A stretch of DNA of 64,000 bases, from NCBI GenBank assembly GCA_001786955.1, contig MFUM01000004.1, positions 4,457 through 68,456 on the forward strand, read 5' to 3'. Shown here piece after piece: positions 4,422 to 51,241 of the stretch (positions are counted from its first letter, which is position 1; each line of letters begins with the position of its first letter). The notes beneath the pieces are model-generated. The model was given only the letters and a program-made list of their open reading frames with translations, was not told the origin of the DNA and did not search any database. The DNA is from Candidatus Nomurabacteria bacterium RIFCSPHIGHO2_12_FULL_42_19. Its GTDB lineage: Bacteria > Patescibacteriota > Minisyncoccia > Phycocordibacterales > UBA9973. Made by a program: the position numbers and the translations under genes.

Positions 4422-5264
4422 CTATATTTCCACTTCCACGAATTTTAACTCCTGAATATTGACCGGGCTGGAAAGCAACGCTTTGGCAAAAGGATTGCGT
4501 GGGTCAGAGATTATCTTTTCAACAACAGCCAAAAGCAGAGAATTAATGCCGGGCAAAACCACCTGATCTCCTTTTTGCAAGATAAAATCTTTAGGCATTG
4601 TCATTTCAAAATTTCCCCCGCCCCGCCCGACAACTTCCATAAAAACATCCCCGCCTGCGTGAGCAGACCGACCCGCAATTATAGCCTGCGTTCTTTCTCC
4701 TGCATTTGAAAACAAAATTACTTTGGAAGAATTGTCATAAGCAAGGCTCACGCGCCCAATCGGCACATTACCTAGGGCAAAAACTATATTCCCCGTTTTT
4801 ACTCCCCTGTTCGTGCCCGTATCAATGATAAGCGTATCATAAGGAGATTGATTCGGTTTGGACAAAATAGCGGATAAAATCATCTTAACCTTTTCGTTTT
4901 TCCCTGCCTTGCCGACAGGCAGACGTCCTAAAATTTCCTTGATTTTTAAATTCTCATCCAAAATAGAATTGTAATTCGCTGTTCTTGCTTCTTGTTCGTT
5001 CAGTCTCAATTTCAAATCTTCATTTTCCCAAAGAAGAGATTTTTTGGAATAAAAATAGGAACCGGCATCTGATAATTTTCCATTTATGTTATTTCCTAAA
5101 ATTAAAACCGGGCGGAAAAGCCATCCGCTCATATAGGACAGCCCGTTAAAAATTCCCGTTCTGAAATAAAATAAAACAATCAAAACAAAAGCGCTAAGCG
5201 CAATATTTAAAAATTTTTTTCTTTTATTTTTTTTATCTAGGAGGTAGCTCATCTTGGTTGCCAA
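4422..5264 (-). CDS. mreC: Rod shape-determining protein MreC
   Basis: N-terminal TM segment, a coiled-coil segment, then a beta-rich domain. It lies immediately downstream of mreB and overlaps it by 32 nt. Confidence 0.7.
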   Translation of the reverse strand: MATKMSYLLDKKNKRKKFLNIALSAFVLIVLFYFRTGIFNGLSYMSGWLFRPVLILGNNINGKLSDAGSYFYSKKSLLWENEDLKLRLNEQEARTANYNSILDENLKIKEILGRLPVGKAGKNEKVKMILSAILSKPNQSPYDTLIIDTGTNRGVKTGNIVFALGNVPIGRVSLAYDNSSKVILFSNAGERTQAIIAGRSAHAGGDVFMEVVGRGGGNFEMTMPKDFILQKGDQVVLPGINSLLLAVVEKIISDPRNPFAKALLSSPVNIQELKFVEVEI

Positions 5265-6279
5265 TCAGAATTTCTTTATAAAGAGGAAGATTGTCCAGAA
5301 TTACCCCCGTCCCGCGAGCCACGGCCGAGAGCGGATCTTCCACTACATAAACCGGAATTTTAAGAACTCTTTGTAAAAGCTGGTCAAGCCCCGGAAGCAA
5401 AGCCCCGCCGCCGGACAAAGTAATCCCCCGATGCATTATGTCGGATAAAATTTCCGGCGGTGTCGTTTCCAGCATGTCTTTCACGCCTTCTACCAGACTT
5501 TTGATTGAAGATGAAAGCGCTTCACGAATATCGGAATCCGTCACCACTACTTCGCGCGGCAATCCGGTAAGAAGGTCCCGTCCGTGGACTTCTGTTTCCA
5601 TGTATTCTCCCTGGACAACGGAACCGATGGCAATCTTGACCATCTCGGCTGTCCGCTCTCCAATCAGTATTTTAAATTCATCGCGCATATAAGTGATAAT
5701 GTCATTATTCAGCCGGTCGCCGGCTATTTTCAGATTTTTTGACTTGACGATTCCGCCCAAGGAAATTACCGCAACATCTGTCGTTCCGCCGCCGACGTCT
5801 ATAATCATGGAACCAACGGGGTCTTTGATTGGAAGCCGGATGCCGATGGCGGCCGCCATCGGTTCTTCTACCAGGAAAACTTCCCTGGCGCCGGCGGAGC
5901 GCGCCGCATCGTAGACTGCCCGCGTTTCAACGTTAGTCGTGCCGGATGGCACGCCGACCAGGACTCTCGGCCGCGCCAACTTTTTGGACATTTTGTCGGC
6001 TTTGTTTATCAGATAGGAGAGCATTTCTTCGGTTACTTCAAAATCGGAAATAACGCCATCCACCAGCGGACGGATAGCTTTGATGTGCCCGGGAGTGCGC
6101 CCGAGCATTTCTTTGGCCTGCACGCCAACTGCCAGGATTTGATTGGTTTTGATGTTGACTGCCACGACTGAAGGCTCGTTGATTACGATACCGTGGCCTT
6201 TCAAATACACCAAGGTATTGGAAGTGCCCAGATCTATGCCGATGTCGTTGGAGATTAATTTGTAGAATTTTTCAAACAT
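5233..6279 (-). CDS. mreB: Rod shape-determining actin-like protein MreB
   Basis: DLGTSNTLVY, actin-fold phosphate loops and DIGGGTTD are present. 348 aa. Confidence 0.92.
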   Translation of the reverse strand: MFEKFYKLISNDIGIDLGTSNTLVYLKGHGIVINEPSVVAVNIKTNQILAVGVQAKEMLGRTPGHIKAIRPLVDGVISDFEVTEEMLSYLINKADKMSKKLARPRVLVGVPSGTTNVETRAVYDAARSAGAREVFLVEEPMAAAIGIRLPIKDPVGSMIIDVGGGTTDVAVISLGGIVKSKNLKIAGDRLNNDIITYMRDEFKILIGERTAEMVKIAIGSVVQGEYMETEVHGRDLLTGLPREVVVTDSDIREALSSSIKSLVEGVKDMLETTPPEILSDIMHRGITLSGGGALLPGLDQLLQRVLKIPVYVVEDPLSAVARGTGVILDNLPLYKEILIGNQDELPPR

Positions 6280-24312: not shown

Positions 24313-24343
24313 AAAACCCCGCTTTAGGCGGGGTTTTGTTTCA
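24313..24343 (-). terminator. Intrinsic terminator hairpin (aaaaccccgc-ttta-ggcggggtttt) after the rpsP-KH pair
   Basis: 8-bp GC stem with U tracts on both strands. Confidence 0.55.
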
Positions 24344-24771: not shown

Positions 24772-25080
24772 TTATTTTTTCATTTTCAACTCCTTTCTCT
24801 TTAGTGTCGGCTTCTTTTTCGGCAGCACATTAACTTTTTTCCCTTCAATGACCTTGTCGTGCACCAAGAAATTATGCATCGTGTCAGAACATTTCGCGCC
24901 TTGGGAAATCCAATACTTTATCCGGTCAGCTATCAAGTTTTTCTCCCCGGCTTTTGGATTATAGGTGCCGAGTATTTCCAAAAACTTTCCACTCTTGGTG
25001 CTATTTTTTGAATCGGTCAAAACAGCCCGAAATGACGGATCATTTTTCCTGCCTATTCTCTGAAGCCTTATCTTTAACAT
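24772..25080 (-). CDS. rpsP: 30S ribosomal protein S16
   Basis: MLKIRLQRIGRKNDPSFRAV... is present. Confidence 0.9.
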   Translation of the reverse strand: MLKIRLQRIGRKNDPSFRAVLTDSKNSTKSGKFLEILGTYNPKAGEKNLIADRIKYWISQGAKCSDTMHNFLVHDKVIEGKKVNVLPKKKPTLKRKELKMKK

Positions 25081-25145
25081 GCAGTGAGTCTAACATAAAT
25101 TATATAAAATGCAATCCGCCCCTATTTTATGCTATATTTAAAAGA

Positions 25146-27167
25146 ATGAAGGAATCTAAAAACAAATTGCAAGGTATTATTTCCATCTCTTCAAAAGGCA
25201 CAGGCTATGTGGCAACCGGAGAAGTGAAGAATAAGGGCCAGGACCCGGAAATTGATTTCCAGCATTTAAATACCGCCCTGCACGGAGATATGGTAGAGAT
25301 AATCTTGCACCCGAAAGGTAAAAATCGCCAAACTGCTGAAGTTTCAAAAATAATATCGCGCGCAAAAATGAATTTCGCGGGAGTTCTGGAAGAAGAAAAC
25401 AAAATGTTCTTCCTGAAACCGGACGATACAAAAATGTATACAGATATTCTAATCCCAACCAAGTTTTTAAATAATGCGAAAGTTGGACAAAAGGTTTTTG
25501 TGGAAATAATTTCATGGAAAGATCCCCACAAGGCTCCGGAAGGAAAAGTAATAAAAGTTTTAGGCCGTCCGGGAGACAATGATACTGAAATGGAAAGTAT
25601 TGCGATAGAAAAAGGCTTTGATGCGAAACTTCCGCATAAAGTGGAAGAAGAAGCAAGGAAAATAAAGCAAAACGGCATTAAAGAAACCGACTATGCCGGA
25701 CGCAGAGATTTTCGCAAAACCCTGACCTTCACTATTGACCCCTCGGATGCGAAAGATTTTGATGATGCGATATCTTTCAGATTCCTCCCCTCCTTAAATA
25801 AGGAGGGGGCAGGGGGTGGTAATTCAAAAGACCACCCCGCCTCCGGCACCCCTCCTAAAAAAGGAGGGGAAGAGCAATATGAAGTCGGCATACACATCGC
25901 CGATGTCTCGCATTATGTAAAAATCGGCAGTGCTTTAGATGAAGAAGCGCGAGAAAGAGGAACTTCGGTATATTTGGTAGATAGGACGATACCAATGCTG
26001 CCGGAAACGCTTTCTAATGATTTGTGCTCTCTGGTGCCAAATAAAGACCGGCTTACTATGAGCGCAGTATTTATCATAGATAAAAATGCTCATGTAAAAA
26101 GCAAATGGTTCGGGCGCACGGTTATACATTCAAAAAAAAGATTTACTTACGAAGAAGCCGAGGAGTTAATAAAAAAATCCGCTGCGCCGTTCCATAAAGA
26201 ACTTTTTATCTTGAACAGCTTGGCAAAAAAATTAACCGGGGAAAGATTTGCGCAGGGCGCAATATCGCTTGACCAGGAAGAAGTAAAATTTGTTTTGGAT
26301 AAAAATGGAGTGCCGTTGAAAGTAATAAAAAAAGAGCGCGGCGATTCAAACAGGCTGATTGAGGAATTTATGCTCCTGGCAAATAAAAAAGTGGCGGAGG
26401 TCTTGTCTCCAAAAAATATAAAGGGTGTGAAAGATGAAGGCGTATCCATATACCGAGTGCACGATCTGCCGAGTAAGGAAAAAATGGCCGATCTGGCGTT
26501 TTTTTTGCGAAGTTTGGGACATAGAGTCTCCTTGCAGAACGGCCTTATCCCGACATATGAAATAAATAAGCTTCTAGAGAGTTTGGCCGGCAAAAATGAA
26601 GAAGATACGGTGCATCGCGCAGTTATCCGTTCTATGGCTAAAGCGCTTTATTCCACCAAAAATATCGGGCATTACGGTCTGGCTTTTCAATATTATACTC
26701 ACTTCACTTCCCCGATTAGGCGCTATCCGGACATCATGGTGCACAGACTTCTGGAAAAATTCCTCTCTGGCAAAAAAATAAAAAAGGAGGATTTAAAAGA
26801 GAAATTAATCGAATATGAAAAAATCGCCCTAAATGCATCCGAACAGGAAAAACGCGCCGCAGATGCCGAACGAGCTTCCATAAAATATAAACAAGTGGAA
26901 TATATGTCCAGATATCTGGGAAAAAGCTTCGACGGGGTAATCAGCGGGATAACCGAGTGGGGCATGTATGTGGAAGAACTAGAGACAAAATGCGAAGGTT
27001 TGGTGCGGGTACGTGATATGAATGACGATTTTTATATTTTCAATGAAAAAAAATTGGAATTAACCGGACAAAAAAAGAAAAAAAAGTACAGGCTCGGCGG
27101 CCGTGTCAAAATAAAAGTAAAATCGGTTGATTTGGAGAGAAAAACGATAGATTATATATTGACATGA
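25146..27167 (+). CDS. rnr: Ribonuclease R (RNB-family 3'-5' exoribonuclease with C-terminal S1 domain)
   Basis: RNB catalytic region (HIADVSHYV, DR..PMLPE) and a C-terminal S1 domain are present. The ATG at 25146 is the likely start, since the ORF-track start overlaps rpsP. It carries an in-frame family-A repeat insertion. Confidence 0.85.
   Translation: MKESKNKLQGIISISSKGTGYVATGEVKNKGQDPEIDFQHLNTALHGDMVEIILHPKGKNRQTAEVSKIISRAKMNFAGVLEEENKMFFLKPDDTKMYTDILIPTKFLNNAKVGQKVFVEIISWKDPHKAPEGKVIKVLGRPGDNDTEMESIAIEKGFDAKLPHKVEEEARKIKQNGIKETDYAGRRDFRKTLTFTIDPSDAKDFDDAISFRFLPSLNKEGAGGGNSKDHPASGTPPKKGGEEQYEVGIHIADVSHYVKIGSALDEEARERGTSVYLVDRTIPMLPETLSNDLCSLVPNKDRLTMSAVFIIDKNAHVKSKWFGRTVIHSKKRFTYEEAEELIKKSAAPFHKELFILNSLAKKLTGERFAQGAISLDQEEVKFVLDKNGVPLKVIKKERGDSNRLIEEFMLLANKKVAEVLSPKNIKGVKDEGVSIYRVHDLPSKEKMADLAFFLRSLGHRVSLQNGLIPTYEINKLLESLAGKNEEDTVHRAVIRSMAKALYSTKNIGHYGLAFQYYTHFTSPIRRYPDIMVHRLLEKFLSGKKIKKEDLKEKLIEYEKIALNASEQEKRAADAERASIKYKQVEYMSRYLGKSFDGVISGITEWGMYVEELETKCEGLVRVRDMNDDFYIFNEKKLELTGQKKKKKYRLGGRVKIKVKSVDLERKTIDYILT
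25781..25878. repeat. GC-rich palindromic element, family A (double unit: cctcccctccttaaataaggaggggg ... cacccctcctaaaaaaggagggg), in frame inside rnr
   Basis: Shares an identical 22-nt core (accaccccctgccccctcctta, reverse complement) with the element in pheS. The encoded peptide is LNKEGAGGGNSK. Confidence 0.65.
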
Positions 27168-49238: not shown

Positions 49239-50063
49239 CTAAAAAAGACGCAATTCAAAAAGAAACGCCAAGAGCGCGCCTAAAACCAGATATGGAGCAA
49301 AGGGAATTTCGCTTTTTATTCCGTATTTTTTAGAAAAAACAACAAGAGAAAGACCGACAATGGCCCCAAGCCAGAAAGCGACCACAAGGCCGGAGAATGC
49401 GCGCGCGAGCCCAAGCAGCCATCCCAAGCCGACTGCCAGTTTGGCATCCCCCAGCCCCATCCAAGTTCCGGAAGACACGAGCCAAAATAAATAAAAAGGT
49501 AAAGCAATCAAGAAGCCGGACAAAAATTCCAAAATTGAAGGCATGTGCGGATAAAAACCTGCCTGCGCCCAGCCTGCGCTGGCAGAAGACAGGCCAGAAT
49601 TGTTAAAAAAGAATAAGCCGATAAAACCAAGAGCGCCTAAGGCAAAAGCGAGCGAGTCGGGGATTATTTTATGCCGGAGGTCGTAGACGGCAATAACCAC
49701 CAGAAGCGCGAATATCGCGGCATAATAAGCATAAGCGATAATAAATGCGGGAGTAAAAAAACTAAACTGTCCGCCCAGGGCGGAAAACTTTAAAAAGAGC
49801 GCCGCAAAAATCAGGCCGGTCGCCAGCTCGACCAAAGGATAGGAAATTGAGATTCTTGTTTTGCAGGTTCGGCATCTACCTCCCAAAACAAAAAAACTTG
49901 CGAGCGGGACAAGCTCATACCAGCAAAGAGTATTCTGACAGGACATACAGGCGCTTCTCCCGCCGAAGGATCTCTCGGTGTTCAGCCGGGCAATGACAAC
50001 ATTTAAAAAACTTCCGATAATCAGGCCAAAAAAAAAGAAAATAATTGTAACTACAATGATCAT
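49239..50063 (-). CDS. pilD: Prepilin peptidase (peptidase A24, PilD)
   Basis: Zinc-binding CMSCQ...CRTCK pairs and a polytopic membrane domain with the A24 catalytic region. Noticeably GC-richer than its neighbours. Confidence 0.85.
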   Translation of the reverse strand: MIIVVTIIFFFFGLIIGSFLNVVIARLNTERSFGGRSACMSCQNTLCWYELVPLASFFVLGGRCRTCKTRISISYPLVELATGLIFAALFLKFSALGGQFSFFTPAFIIAYAYYAAIFALLVVIAVYDLRHKIIPDSLAFALGALGFIGLFFFNNSGLSSASAGWAQAGFYPHMPSILEFLSGFLIALPFYLFWLVSSGTWMGLGDAKLAVGLGWLLGLARAFSGLVVAFWLGAIVGLSLVVFSKKYGIKSEIPFAPYLVLGALLAFLFELRLF

Positions 50064-51112: not shown

Positions 51113-51162
51113 AATCTTAATTTCTAAACTAAATTAATAATAATTAATAATGCAATTTCGAC

Positions 51163-51189
51163 TCCCGCCTGCTCCCATAGGGCGGGCAG
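51163..51189. repeat. GC-rich element, family B-like (cccgcctgctcccatagggcgggcagg), intergenic between pilC and pilA
   Basis: cccgcc/ggcggg and cctgc/gcagg inverted repeats. Confidence 0.45.
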
Positions 51190-51241
51190 GTATTTTTAAT
51201 ACGTTCATTATAACATATATGCAAAAAAGTTATCCACACCC

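Follow-up and report, generated by a model that had tools for sequence, protein, structure and literature searches.

Why should two unrelated enzymes of one bacterium contain the same short run of nucleotides, on opposite strands of the DNA and in the reading frame of each host gene? The question is raised by a 64-kb stretch of the genome of Candidatus Nomurabacteria bacterium RIFCSPHIGHO2_12_FULL_42_19 (hereafter the window), where such a segment lies in the gene of RNase R (rnr, 24954..27167, + strand, a 737-codon open reading frame (ORF) assigned by similarity search and structure-matched alignment) and in that of the phenylalanyl-tRNA synthetase alpha chain (pheS, 40281..41072, - strand). 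The RNase R of the window is 100% identical to that of Candidatus Nomurabacteria bacterium GW2011_GWC2_41_8, a metagenome-assembled genome (MAG) of the candidate phyla radiation (CPR, Patescibacteria). We consider it probable that the two inserts are copies of one dispersed triplex-type repeat, likely gene-less derivatives of units associated with DUF559 endonuclease genes. The original prediction had drawn attention to the shared segment; the swapped order of its halves, its triplex-motif design, its link to the BoxC/PIT repeats and its link to DUF559 genes go beyond it.

The repeat shared by rnr and pheS

The rnr element was predicted to hold GC-rich hairpins, and three perfect ones of 7-9 bp were found at 25787-25808, 25813-25838 and 25849-25869. 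The 22-mer ACCACCCCCTGCCCCCTCCTTA, proposed as a core common to the two genes, occurs at exactly two places in the window, 25799-25820 (- strand) and 40791-40812 (+ strand), and had no match in 100 shuffles even when 3 mismatches were allowed. Pairwise alignment gave a significant nucleotide identity and a longer exact inverted match, of 32 nt (25798-25829 against 40782-40813, blastn E 3e-13). Both inserts are in the frame of the host gene (...LPSLNKEGAGGGNSKDHPASGTPPKKGGEE... in rnr, ...PPRPSGTPPQAGGEKNPPRLDKEGAGGGNSK... in pheS), with the predicted peptides LNKEGAGGGNSK in RNase R and LDKEGAGGGNSK in PheS, and the rnr insert sits, as had been stated, beside the RNB catalytic motif, between DFDDAISF and GIHIADVSHY. 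The motif GGCACYCCYCCT-N3-9-AGGRGGRG occurs three times (rnr, pheS and pheT), against 0 expected.

The extent of this identity says little about the age of the copies. The 22-nt core is invariant family-wide, in more than 100 public genome stretches (in the alignment of related copies this invariance is partly imposed by the search pattern used), so identity alone is no proof of a recent transfer between rnr and pheS, and a transfer argued from the 32-nt match was dropped for this reason.

The repeat unit consists of a GC-rich hairpin (pyrimidine arm, loop, purine arm) and, after 2-3 nt, a G-rich tail that mirrors the purine arm. It comes as module X, with the hairpin CCCCTCCTT-loop-AAGGAGGGGG, 2 nt and then GGGGGTGGTAA, and as its inverse, module Y, with ACCACCYC, a mini hairpin GCCC-N3-4-GGGC and a hairpin CYCCTCCT-loop-AGGAGGRG. 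In rnr (+ strand), where the copy was delimited by hairpin search, a hidden Markov model (HMM) of 36 related copies and a count of base triads, X (25784..25829, peptide LPSLNKEGAGGGNSK) is composed of the C-rich arm CCCCTCCTT (25787-25795), the loop AAAT, the purine arm AAGGAGGGGG (25800-25809), a 2-nt loop CA, the mirror-repeat G tail GGGGGTGGTAA (25812-25822) and TTCAAAA. It is followed by Y (25831..25875, peptide DHPASGTPPKKGGEE), with the C tail ACCACCCC (25831-25838), which pairs with the G tail of X, the mini hairpin GCC-TCC-GGC, the hairpin CCCCTCCT-AAAAAA-AGGAGGGG (25849-25869) and AAGAGC. On the coding strand of pheS (- strand) Y stands first (40832..40882, peptide PPRPSGTPPQAGGEK), made of ACCACCTC, the mini hairpin GTCC-TTC-GGGC and the hairpin CTCCTCCT-CAGGC-AGGAGGAG; X is second (40782..40827, peptide PPRLDKEGAGGGNSK) and reads CCCCGCCTT-GAT-AAGGAGGGGG-CA-GGGGGTGGTAATTCAAAA, its G tail pairing with the C tail of Y and closing the element.

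The 36-copy HMM matched the rnr element end to end (nhmmer E 5e-21) and the pheS element in two pieces, model positions 46-97 (40882-40832, E 3e-8) and then 3-48 (40827-40782, E 6e-10): the halves of the two elements are homologous and their order is swapped. The rnr doublet, X-Y, is tail-to-tail, with the G and C tails paired as the middle hairpin, and the pheS doublet, Y-X, is head-to-head, with the tails paired as the outer stem. Because these are the two ways of doubling one asymmetric unit, the elements look circularly permuted; both arrangements recur in other genomes. The single long hairpin given by the minimum-free-energy fold of the rnr copy was disfavoured, since a compensatory U-A/C-G pair lies inside the local 3' hairpin and, by inspection of the aligned copies, the T-type 3' arm would mispair in the long one; three local hairpins are therefore preferred. 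Rfam, at gathering and at permissive thresholds, returned tRNAs and sub-threshold miRNA-like hairpin matches only, and no family for the insert.

Five copies were counted within the window. The third is a lone Y in pheT (39237..39286, - strand, E 2e-4, peptide TPSPDGHSPLAGGEE), with ACCCCCTC, the mini hairpin GCCC-GAT-GGGC and the hairpin CTCCCCCT-TAGC-AGGGGGAG. The fourth is an intergenic singlet with a variant sequence (33075..33133, - strand, E 6e-5); on the + strand it reads C tail CCTCACCCC, hairpin CCCCTCTCCTT-ATC-AAGGAGAGGGG, mini hairpin GCC-AAA-GGC and G tail GGGGTGAGG, and its triplex-competent strand is the - strand. The fifth, in the gene of an SMC-family ATPase (gene 29101-31374, copy 30486..30542, - strand, peptide DPLRHSDTSPLIRGRMGGGK), is a C tail-hairpin-G tail singlet with the C tail ACCCCC, the mini hairpin GTCA-TTC-TGAC, the hairpin CCTCCCCCTT-AAT-AAGGGGGAGG and the G tail GGGTGGGGGT. 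The modules in pheT and in the SMC gene use a frame different from that of rnr and pheS, which argues that the repeat spreads as DNA and not as a protein motif.

As regards the rnr gene itself, its longest ORF begins at a TTG (24954-25145 region) and there overlaps rpsP on the opposite strand. The likely start is at or near the methionine of MKESKNK at about 25146, well past this TTG; the orthologs and a 666-aa database entry point to a start a few codons further downstream.

Insertion polymorphism, surface loops and spread of the family

In 120 RNase R orthologs with 74-100% identity, the segment between DFDDAISF and GIHIADVSHY was compared. The loop is short and without insert in 54 of them, the closest non-self relative (85% identity) included; about 18 carry X-Y, 14 X only or a decayed form, 10 Y only and about 24 other inserts. 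Among 120 PheS orthologs about 70% are insert-free and read WIKNxKEKVLRTHTT, seven carry Y-X, and the others have X only or inserts of at least three other families. With a significant nucleotide identity and an insert that is not universal among orthologs of either enzyme, the proposal of one repeat family inside two unrelated enzymes was upheld.

In the DNA of the X-only rnr genes the final bases of Y's 3' hairpin are still present, which identifies these forms as internal deletions of an older X-Y insertion. Of the other inserts of the rnr loop, the three whose DNA was retrieved are palindromic: one is a singlet of the CCCCTCCCC variant type, one an antisense Y with its mini hairpin, and one an unrelated AT-rich palindrome with an 18-bp stem. 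This variety indicates that at least four kinds of palindromic DNA struck the same loop.

Two further observations concern this site. At about 1690-1790 of locus L202 (rnr ortholog P0037) the RNase R loop holds a different palindrome, with an 18-bp AT-rich outer stem and a GC-rich centre, whose peptide KQKHSFLNGLAGVGAPGNRGPEEKNV is common to the orthologs P0034, P0037, P0038, P0046 and P0113. The apparently empty sites of P0002, P0072 and P0073 read REISHHEYE or REISPHEYE; the His-His there could be a remnant of the AATCACCACC part, that is, of a near-complete deletion, and not the mark of a never-occupied site.

The inserts are insertions into permissive surface loops. In alignment with solved structures, the RNase R insert (residues 206-235) stands where B. 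subtilis RNase R (8cdu_C) has the four residues 275-278, and the insert of PheS (residues 67-98 of the query) where 2rhq_A has two. In an AlphaFold2 model of RNase R, for which 82 orthologs were used (mean predicted local distance difference test score, pLDDT, of 71), the insert (residues 209-233) is a coil with pLDDT<50 between the strands 200-207 and 237-245; the model is weak elsewhere too and was therefore used for this local statement only. The expectation of a surface loop was thus borne out, as a disordered coil.

To follow the family outside the window, the 23-nt core pattern AAGGAGGGGNNNGGGGGTGGTAA was scanned through one genome per species (596 Gb), giving 117 stretches where about one would be expected by our own arithmetic with equal base frequencies. 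The matches include 36 full doublets with variable loops. The majority of the stretches come from Nomurabacteria, Paceibacterota or other Patescibacteria, and further matches from cultured Spirosoma, Hymenobacter, Larkinella and Geomobilimonas and from Bacteroidales, Thioploca, Kapaibacterium and other MAGs. In CPR, 59 of 77 modules (77%) lie inside long ORFs, 55 in sense and 4 in antisense, whereas in other phyla only 8 of 44 do. The full X-Y doublets are intragenic in 27 of 36 cases, and 26 of these 27 share their orientation and the central frame KEG(V/A)GGGNSK...GTPP. At least one sense frame is open in all 36 doublets and an antisense frame in 19, so that the openness of the sense frame accounts for the orientation bias in part only. 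The stems are kept in 97% of cells, compared with 48-65% in slid controls, and one clean compensatory U-A/C-G pair is present in 8 of 29 copies. Stem decay did not differ significantly between intragenic and intergenic copies (Leu-to-Arg stem-breaking changes in 10/59 and 0/18, respectively; Fisher p 0.13).

Structural class and linkage to DUF559 genes

The purine arm and the G-rich tail of the unit can be aligned in consecutive allowed triads (G·G, T·A and A·A), 10 in rnr X, 9 in pheS X, 10 in the intergenic copy and 10 in the SMC copy. In these copies the second loop measures 1-6 nt, as in the rnr string AAGGAGGGGG / CA / GGGGGTGGTAA; the Y modules satisfy the triplex rule only if their mini hairpin of 10-13 nt counts as the second loop. 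The folding tools that we used model hairpins only, and the triplex is here a sequence-based prediction.

The same three-block design is known from a repeat first seen as BoxC beside envM (fabI) in E. coli, renamed PIT and later studied as TMECO (PMC4666352), for which the pattern CCCTCNCCC-N3-6-GGGNGAGGG-N3-GGGNGAGGG was published (Holder et al. 2015, PMC4666352). Strain MG1655 has 23 TMECO copies, always intergenic, with five inverted doublets, and TMECOs are accompanied by raised local variability, by stops of the polymerase and by small deletions after which a remnant able to form a hairpin is left (PMC4666352). The CPR elements resemble this class (Bergler 1992; Hoyne et al. 2000; PMC4666352) in their C-rich arm, loop, purine arm, second loop of 2-3 nt and mirrored G-rich third strand with T opposite A, in their size of about 35 nt, in being multi-copy with conserved stems, variable loops and inverted doublets, and in their tie to local deletions with hairpin-capable remnants. 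They differ from it in sequence (CCCCTCCTT/AAGGAGGGG/GGGGGTGGT, against CCCTCNCCC/GGGNGAGGG/GGGNGAGGG in TMECO) and in the extra mini hairpin of the inverse module; no enzyme had been associated with the class before, whereas here modules bracket DUF559 genes. The most important difference is that TMECOs are "always intergenic" in E. coli, whereas 77% of the CPR copies lie in ORFs and in frame. With stem sequences that do not follow the TMECO consensus, and with most CPR copies intragenic, the element is assigned to the structural class and not to the TMECO sequence family. Since purine-motif triplexes do not form in RNA (PMC4666352), the relevant folded form, if the mirror tail is selected, would be single-stranded DNA.

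Judged by its sequence design, the element is a new intragenic, in-frame variant of the known BoxC/PIT/TM repeat class and a functional analogue of the Rickettsia palindromic elements (RPEs). The latter, which Ogata and colleagues are said to have reported in 2000, are reportedly Rickettsia-specific, AT-rich and 100-150 bp long. They too are short palindromic repeats lying in frame in housekeeping genes of a reduced-genome bacterium, where they form extra surface segments with a strong bias of orientation and frame and with presence or absence between orthologs; they are, however, longer and AT-richer, and are not known to have a triplex mirror tail or an associated gene, so that the analogy is functional only and made by description. 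GC-rich palindromes can also lie in frame in genes of yeast mitochondria, where GC clusters occur next to mobile ORFs.

The association with an enzyme was met in Geomobilimonas luticola (locus L113), where two tandem ORFs of about 140 aa, both belonging to DUF559 (PF04480, E 1e-24 to 1e-33), each have a Y-X element immediately upstream. At 4538-5600 of the same locus these tandem genes are 83% identical to each other, and eight module matches fall within 2.5 kb. In the loci selected by the repeat all 10 DUF559 ORFs are flanked by modules, eight of them within 31 nt of a recognised module and the remaining two by a GGGTGAGG/CCCTCTCC variant; several, those of Nomurabacteria (L020, L025) and Paceibacterota (L012) among them, have modules on either side.

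Because these first loci had been picked by the repeat, the test was redone on loci picked by DUF559 protein similarity alone (80 metagenome loci, GC 34-63%). A GC hairpin with a G-rich tail was found within 150 nt upstream in 41/64 and, mirrored, downstream in 43/64, compared with 4/44 and 3/44 in displaced windows, and at least 8 triplex triads were counted in 26/64 upstream and 23/62 downstream flanks, compared with 0/46 and 0/42 in the controls. In 37 of 65 loci the upstream flank scored above the cross-locus 95th percentile against the reverse-complemented downstream flank; the flank sequence varies by lineage and the architecture is constant. A test of tail complementarity across the gene (31/64, against 59/189 in the cross-locus control) is uninformative because all tails are G-rich, and the displaced-window and triad tests were used instead. 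The tails point inward in most metagenome loci and outward in L020 and in the P0247-P0254 group. Modules are thus physically linked to DUF559 (Vsr-like) nuclease genes across phyla.

The repeat also reaches into the DUF559 proteins: in 40 of 120 database entries the N or C terminus is extended by a translated module. The proteins of one group finish with ...TPSLIKEGAGGGN and then the stop, the same peptide as in RNase R and PheS, with the TAA of GGTGGTAA as stop codon. Annotated repeat-derived extensions occur throughout P0247-P0360, for example LELPPPTPSLKRRG... and ...SSPPCGGGVPKGRGGD, and a miscalled start codon may account for some of those at the N terminus. Contigs <2 kb hold many of these genes, which is what repeats that break assemblies would lead one to expect. 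Among PDB entries, the DUF559 profile matches 3hrl, an uncharacterised protein, and weakly the homing endonuclease I-Bth0305I (3r3p); a survey of PD-(D/E)xK enzymes puts Vsr, DUF559 and that homing endonuclease in one group (PMC3424549). In the literature searched, whose coverage was incomplete, neither the intragenic CPR elements nor a link between DUF559 and repeats had been described, which is no proof of novelty.

In E. coli K-12 the only DUF559 gene examined is ycjD, between sapF and fabI. A type-A TMECO/BoxC, CCCCTCGCCCCTCTGGGGAGAGGGTTAGGGTGAGGGG, lies about 170 nt downstream of it, after a partial duplicate of the ycjD 3' end. Just upstream of the ycjD start there is a 16-bp perfect hairpin (L207, NC_000913.3 1351040-1351830). 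Of 5426 complete E. coli genomes, 3378 (62%) have the gene; the O157:H7 genomes sampled lack it. In the sampled genomes without ycjD, O157:H7 included, a sapF-ycjD-fabI query was matched as one place by its fabI part only.

Origin of the inserts and meaning for the host genomes

Units with the same ends enclose a DUF559 gene in the Nomurabacteria and Paceibacterota loci L020, L025 and L012, and since the same modules bracket DUF559 genes in inverted orientation, the intragenic copies are best read as gene-less derivatives, comparable to the miniature transposable elements with inverted repeats known as MITEs or to REPINs, the doublets of repetitive extragenic palindromes (REPs). Like MITEs they are short, resemble internally deleted gene-carrying units and carry inverted repeats at their termini (for the pheS form ACCACCYC...GGGGTGGT, this form being closed by ACCACCTC...GGGGGTGGT; in the rnr form these are the outer hairpin arms). 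Unlike MITEs they have no target-site duplication that we could see, and the nuclease of the associated gene is no known or recognised transposase.

The mechanism that we propose would run as follows. The G-rich strand would fold transiently, as hairpin or triplex, in single-stranded DNA; the cognate DUF559 nuclease would recognise or nick the folded strand; and host repair or template switching would copy the module into A-rich sites, which in the AT-rich CPR genomes are typically Lys/Glu/Asn codons of surface loops in housekeeping proteins. In essential genes the survivors would be those copies whose open frame fits the host frame, and intragenic repeats would persist because one frame of the element is always open. 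The inserts would be translated as disordered loops rich in Gly, Pro, Ser and Lys and would later decay by internal deletions. The linkage of modules and genes points, tentatively, to a role of the nuclease at the recognition or nicking step, which we regard as possible and somewhat short of an even chance.

Several observations weigh against such an origin. A hydrolytic nuclease of about 120 aa cannot transpose alone, and there is no DUF559 gene within the 64-kb window. No target-site duplication is visible between filled and empty pheS and rnr sites, the empty sites being 15-25% diverged. The diversity at the rnr site, judging from the retained hairpin ends, is partly one old insertion with deletions and not repeated insertion, and the covariation among the aligned copies is modest, essentially one pair in two subfamilies. 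The TMECO triplex formed in vitro and was not detectable in vivo, and no transposase, integrase or mobility gene was found near TMECOs (PMC4666352). In E. coli, only one flank of ycjD bears a triplex motif. By published counts, A/B1 strains have 19-30 TMECOs, O157:H7 strains 11 and B2 strains 1-2; O157:H7 has its 11 without ycjD, so that any relation of ycjD to TMECO number, for which the strain data are anecdotal, is not all-or-none.

The alternative that survives best, and which we consider unlikely, is that the repeats spread without a dedicated enzyme: their structure would stall replication, template switching or slippage would copy them, and DUF559 would be a passenger or a homing gene that prefers to invade, or is kept in, doublets; the linkage would then be genuine, but the nuclease would not move the repeats. 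The local instability, polymerase stops and small deletions tied to TMECOs (PMC4666352) fit it, as do the TMECOs of O157:H7, the occurrence of both gene topologies (tails inward and tails outward), the gene-less copies that far outnumber DUF559 genes, and the homing endonuclease that is the nearest characterised structural relative of DUF559. The lineage-specific flanks with constant architecture, which score higher against their own partner than across loci, are what co-evolution of enzyme and substrate would leave, but homing would leave them too. With the Vsr-fold homing endonucleases (I-Bth0305I, 3r3p; PMC3424549) the units share a small Vsr-like nuclease gene associated with mobile DNA; unlike them, they are free-standing and not in introns or inteins, and their "targets" are dispersed repeats and not one gene site.

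It is very improbable that the inserts are REP/REPIN-type elements moved by a Y1 transposase (IS200-like, or a RAYT, the REP-associated tyrosine transposase). REPINs are likewise inverted doublets of hairpin units, and the "REPtrons" of REP/REPIN and RAYT share with our system a small hairpin unit, occurring singly or in inverted doublets, a single-copy enzyme gene flanked by inverted units, and a unit sequence that differs between enzyme lineages; the head-to-head and tail-to-tail arrangements also recall the mosaics of bacterial interspersed mosaic elements (BIMEs). The related contig L001 even has a Y1_Tnp gene (PF01797, E 1e-7) at a distance of 3 kb from rnr. Such genes, however, were found in only 3 of more than 200 loci, never adjoining an element and never flanked by modules; the aligned copies have no GTAG/CGTC 5' tag of REPs, and their mirror-repeat tail is foreign to REPs, which are extragenic. 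The enzyme here is a DUF559 PD-(D/E)xK hydrolase and not an HUH tyrosine transposase. The IS200-like Y1 genes (PF01797) seen near rnr in some Nomurabacteria contigs, at 15035-15772 of L001 and 4199-4903 of L098, have no flanking modules.

Just as improbable is a selected protein module, that is, a functional Gly/Pro-rich loop and not a DNA element. The peptide KEG(A/V)GGGNSK does recur in many hosts, the 26 of 27 doublets in one frame could be taken in its favour, and so could the excess of Leu-to-Arg changes in intragenic stems, which is not significant. But intergenic copies exist, Y is read in other frames in pheT and in the SMC gene, about half of the RNase R orthologs are insert-free, the insert is modelled as a disordered coil, and the symmetry of mirror and palindrome in the nucleotides has no protein rationale. 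Scarcely credible is that the inserts go untranslated, whether cut out like small introns or inteins or bypassed by the ribosome in the manner of T4 gene 60: strongly structured GC-rich inserts do sit in essential genes, and a preprint, by its title, links bypass elements with mobile endonuclease genes, but all intragenic copies run on in the frame of the host gene and lack stops, all 36 doublets have an open sense frame, no take-off and landing codon pairs or stop codons were seen, the inserts are far too short for inteins, and Rfam gave no family above threshold.

Other palindromes of the window are unrelated to the rnr/pheS repeat or may be so. A second family with CCTGCC...GCAGG cores is present at 8600-8645, 49552-49598, 35100-35140, 39980-40028 and 51155-51195, in frame in EF-Ts, prepilin peptidase, ThrRS and a second PheT site and with one intergenic copy, its peptides being like LPPARAGGAQAG. 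The DnaG primase gene contains in frame an unrelated, near-perfect 43-nt palindrome, AGCGGACGTTGGACGTCCG...CGGACGTCCAACGTCCGCT (14503-14549, -41 kcal/mol), and gyrB two adjacent GC-rich hairpins in frame (36517-36583), possibly of yet another insert family. Within the NAD-dependent DNA ligase gene a stretch of 64 nt is directly repeated with 91% identity at a distance of 648 nt (45578-45641 and 46226-46289); the adenylation domain of the ligase is split in two by Pfam, and this suggests that the gene has an internal duplication or insertion. Near-identical intergenic hairpins AAAACCCCGCC-loop-GGCGGGGTTTT at 598-626 and 24313-24341 are terminator-like and unrelated to the repeat.

To our knowledge, the BoxC/PIT/TMECO repeats, recorded since 1992 and in hundreds of genomes, have no known origin, enzyme or function. 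The linkage offers a testable candidate in a model organism, ycjD, beside the original BoxC at fabI/envM. A wider proposal, to which we give less than even odds, is that DUF559 (YcjD and its relatives) would be the missing enzyme partner of BoxC/PIT/TMECO, in a system like that of REP and RAYT with a Vsr-fold hydrolase that recognises folded single-stranded DNA, and that in CPR such repeats may have colonised the interiors of essential genes on a large scale and remodelled the surface loops of core enzymes.

For the CPR bacteria, the inserts show that many length differences among core proteins are due to a single class of DNA repeat, selfish or structure-forming. In the window RNase R, PheS, PheT and the SMC-family ATPase are affected, and other in-frame palindromes lie in EF-Ts, DnaG, GyrB, LigA and ThrRS. 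Such in-frame repeats matter for annotation, for alignments of phylogenetic markers, for structure prediction and for assembly breaks. After the Rickettsia RPEs, they are a second independent example of palindromic DNA tolerated as (predicted) translated loops in reduced genomes.

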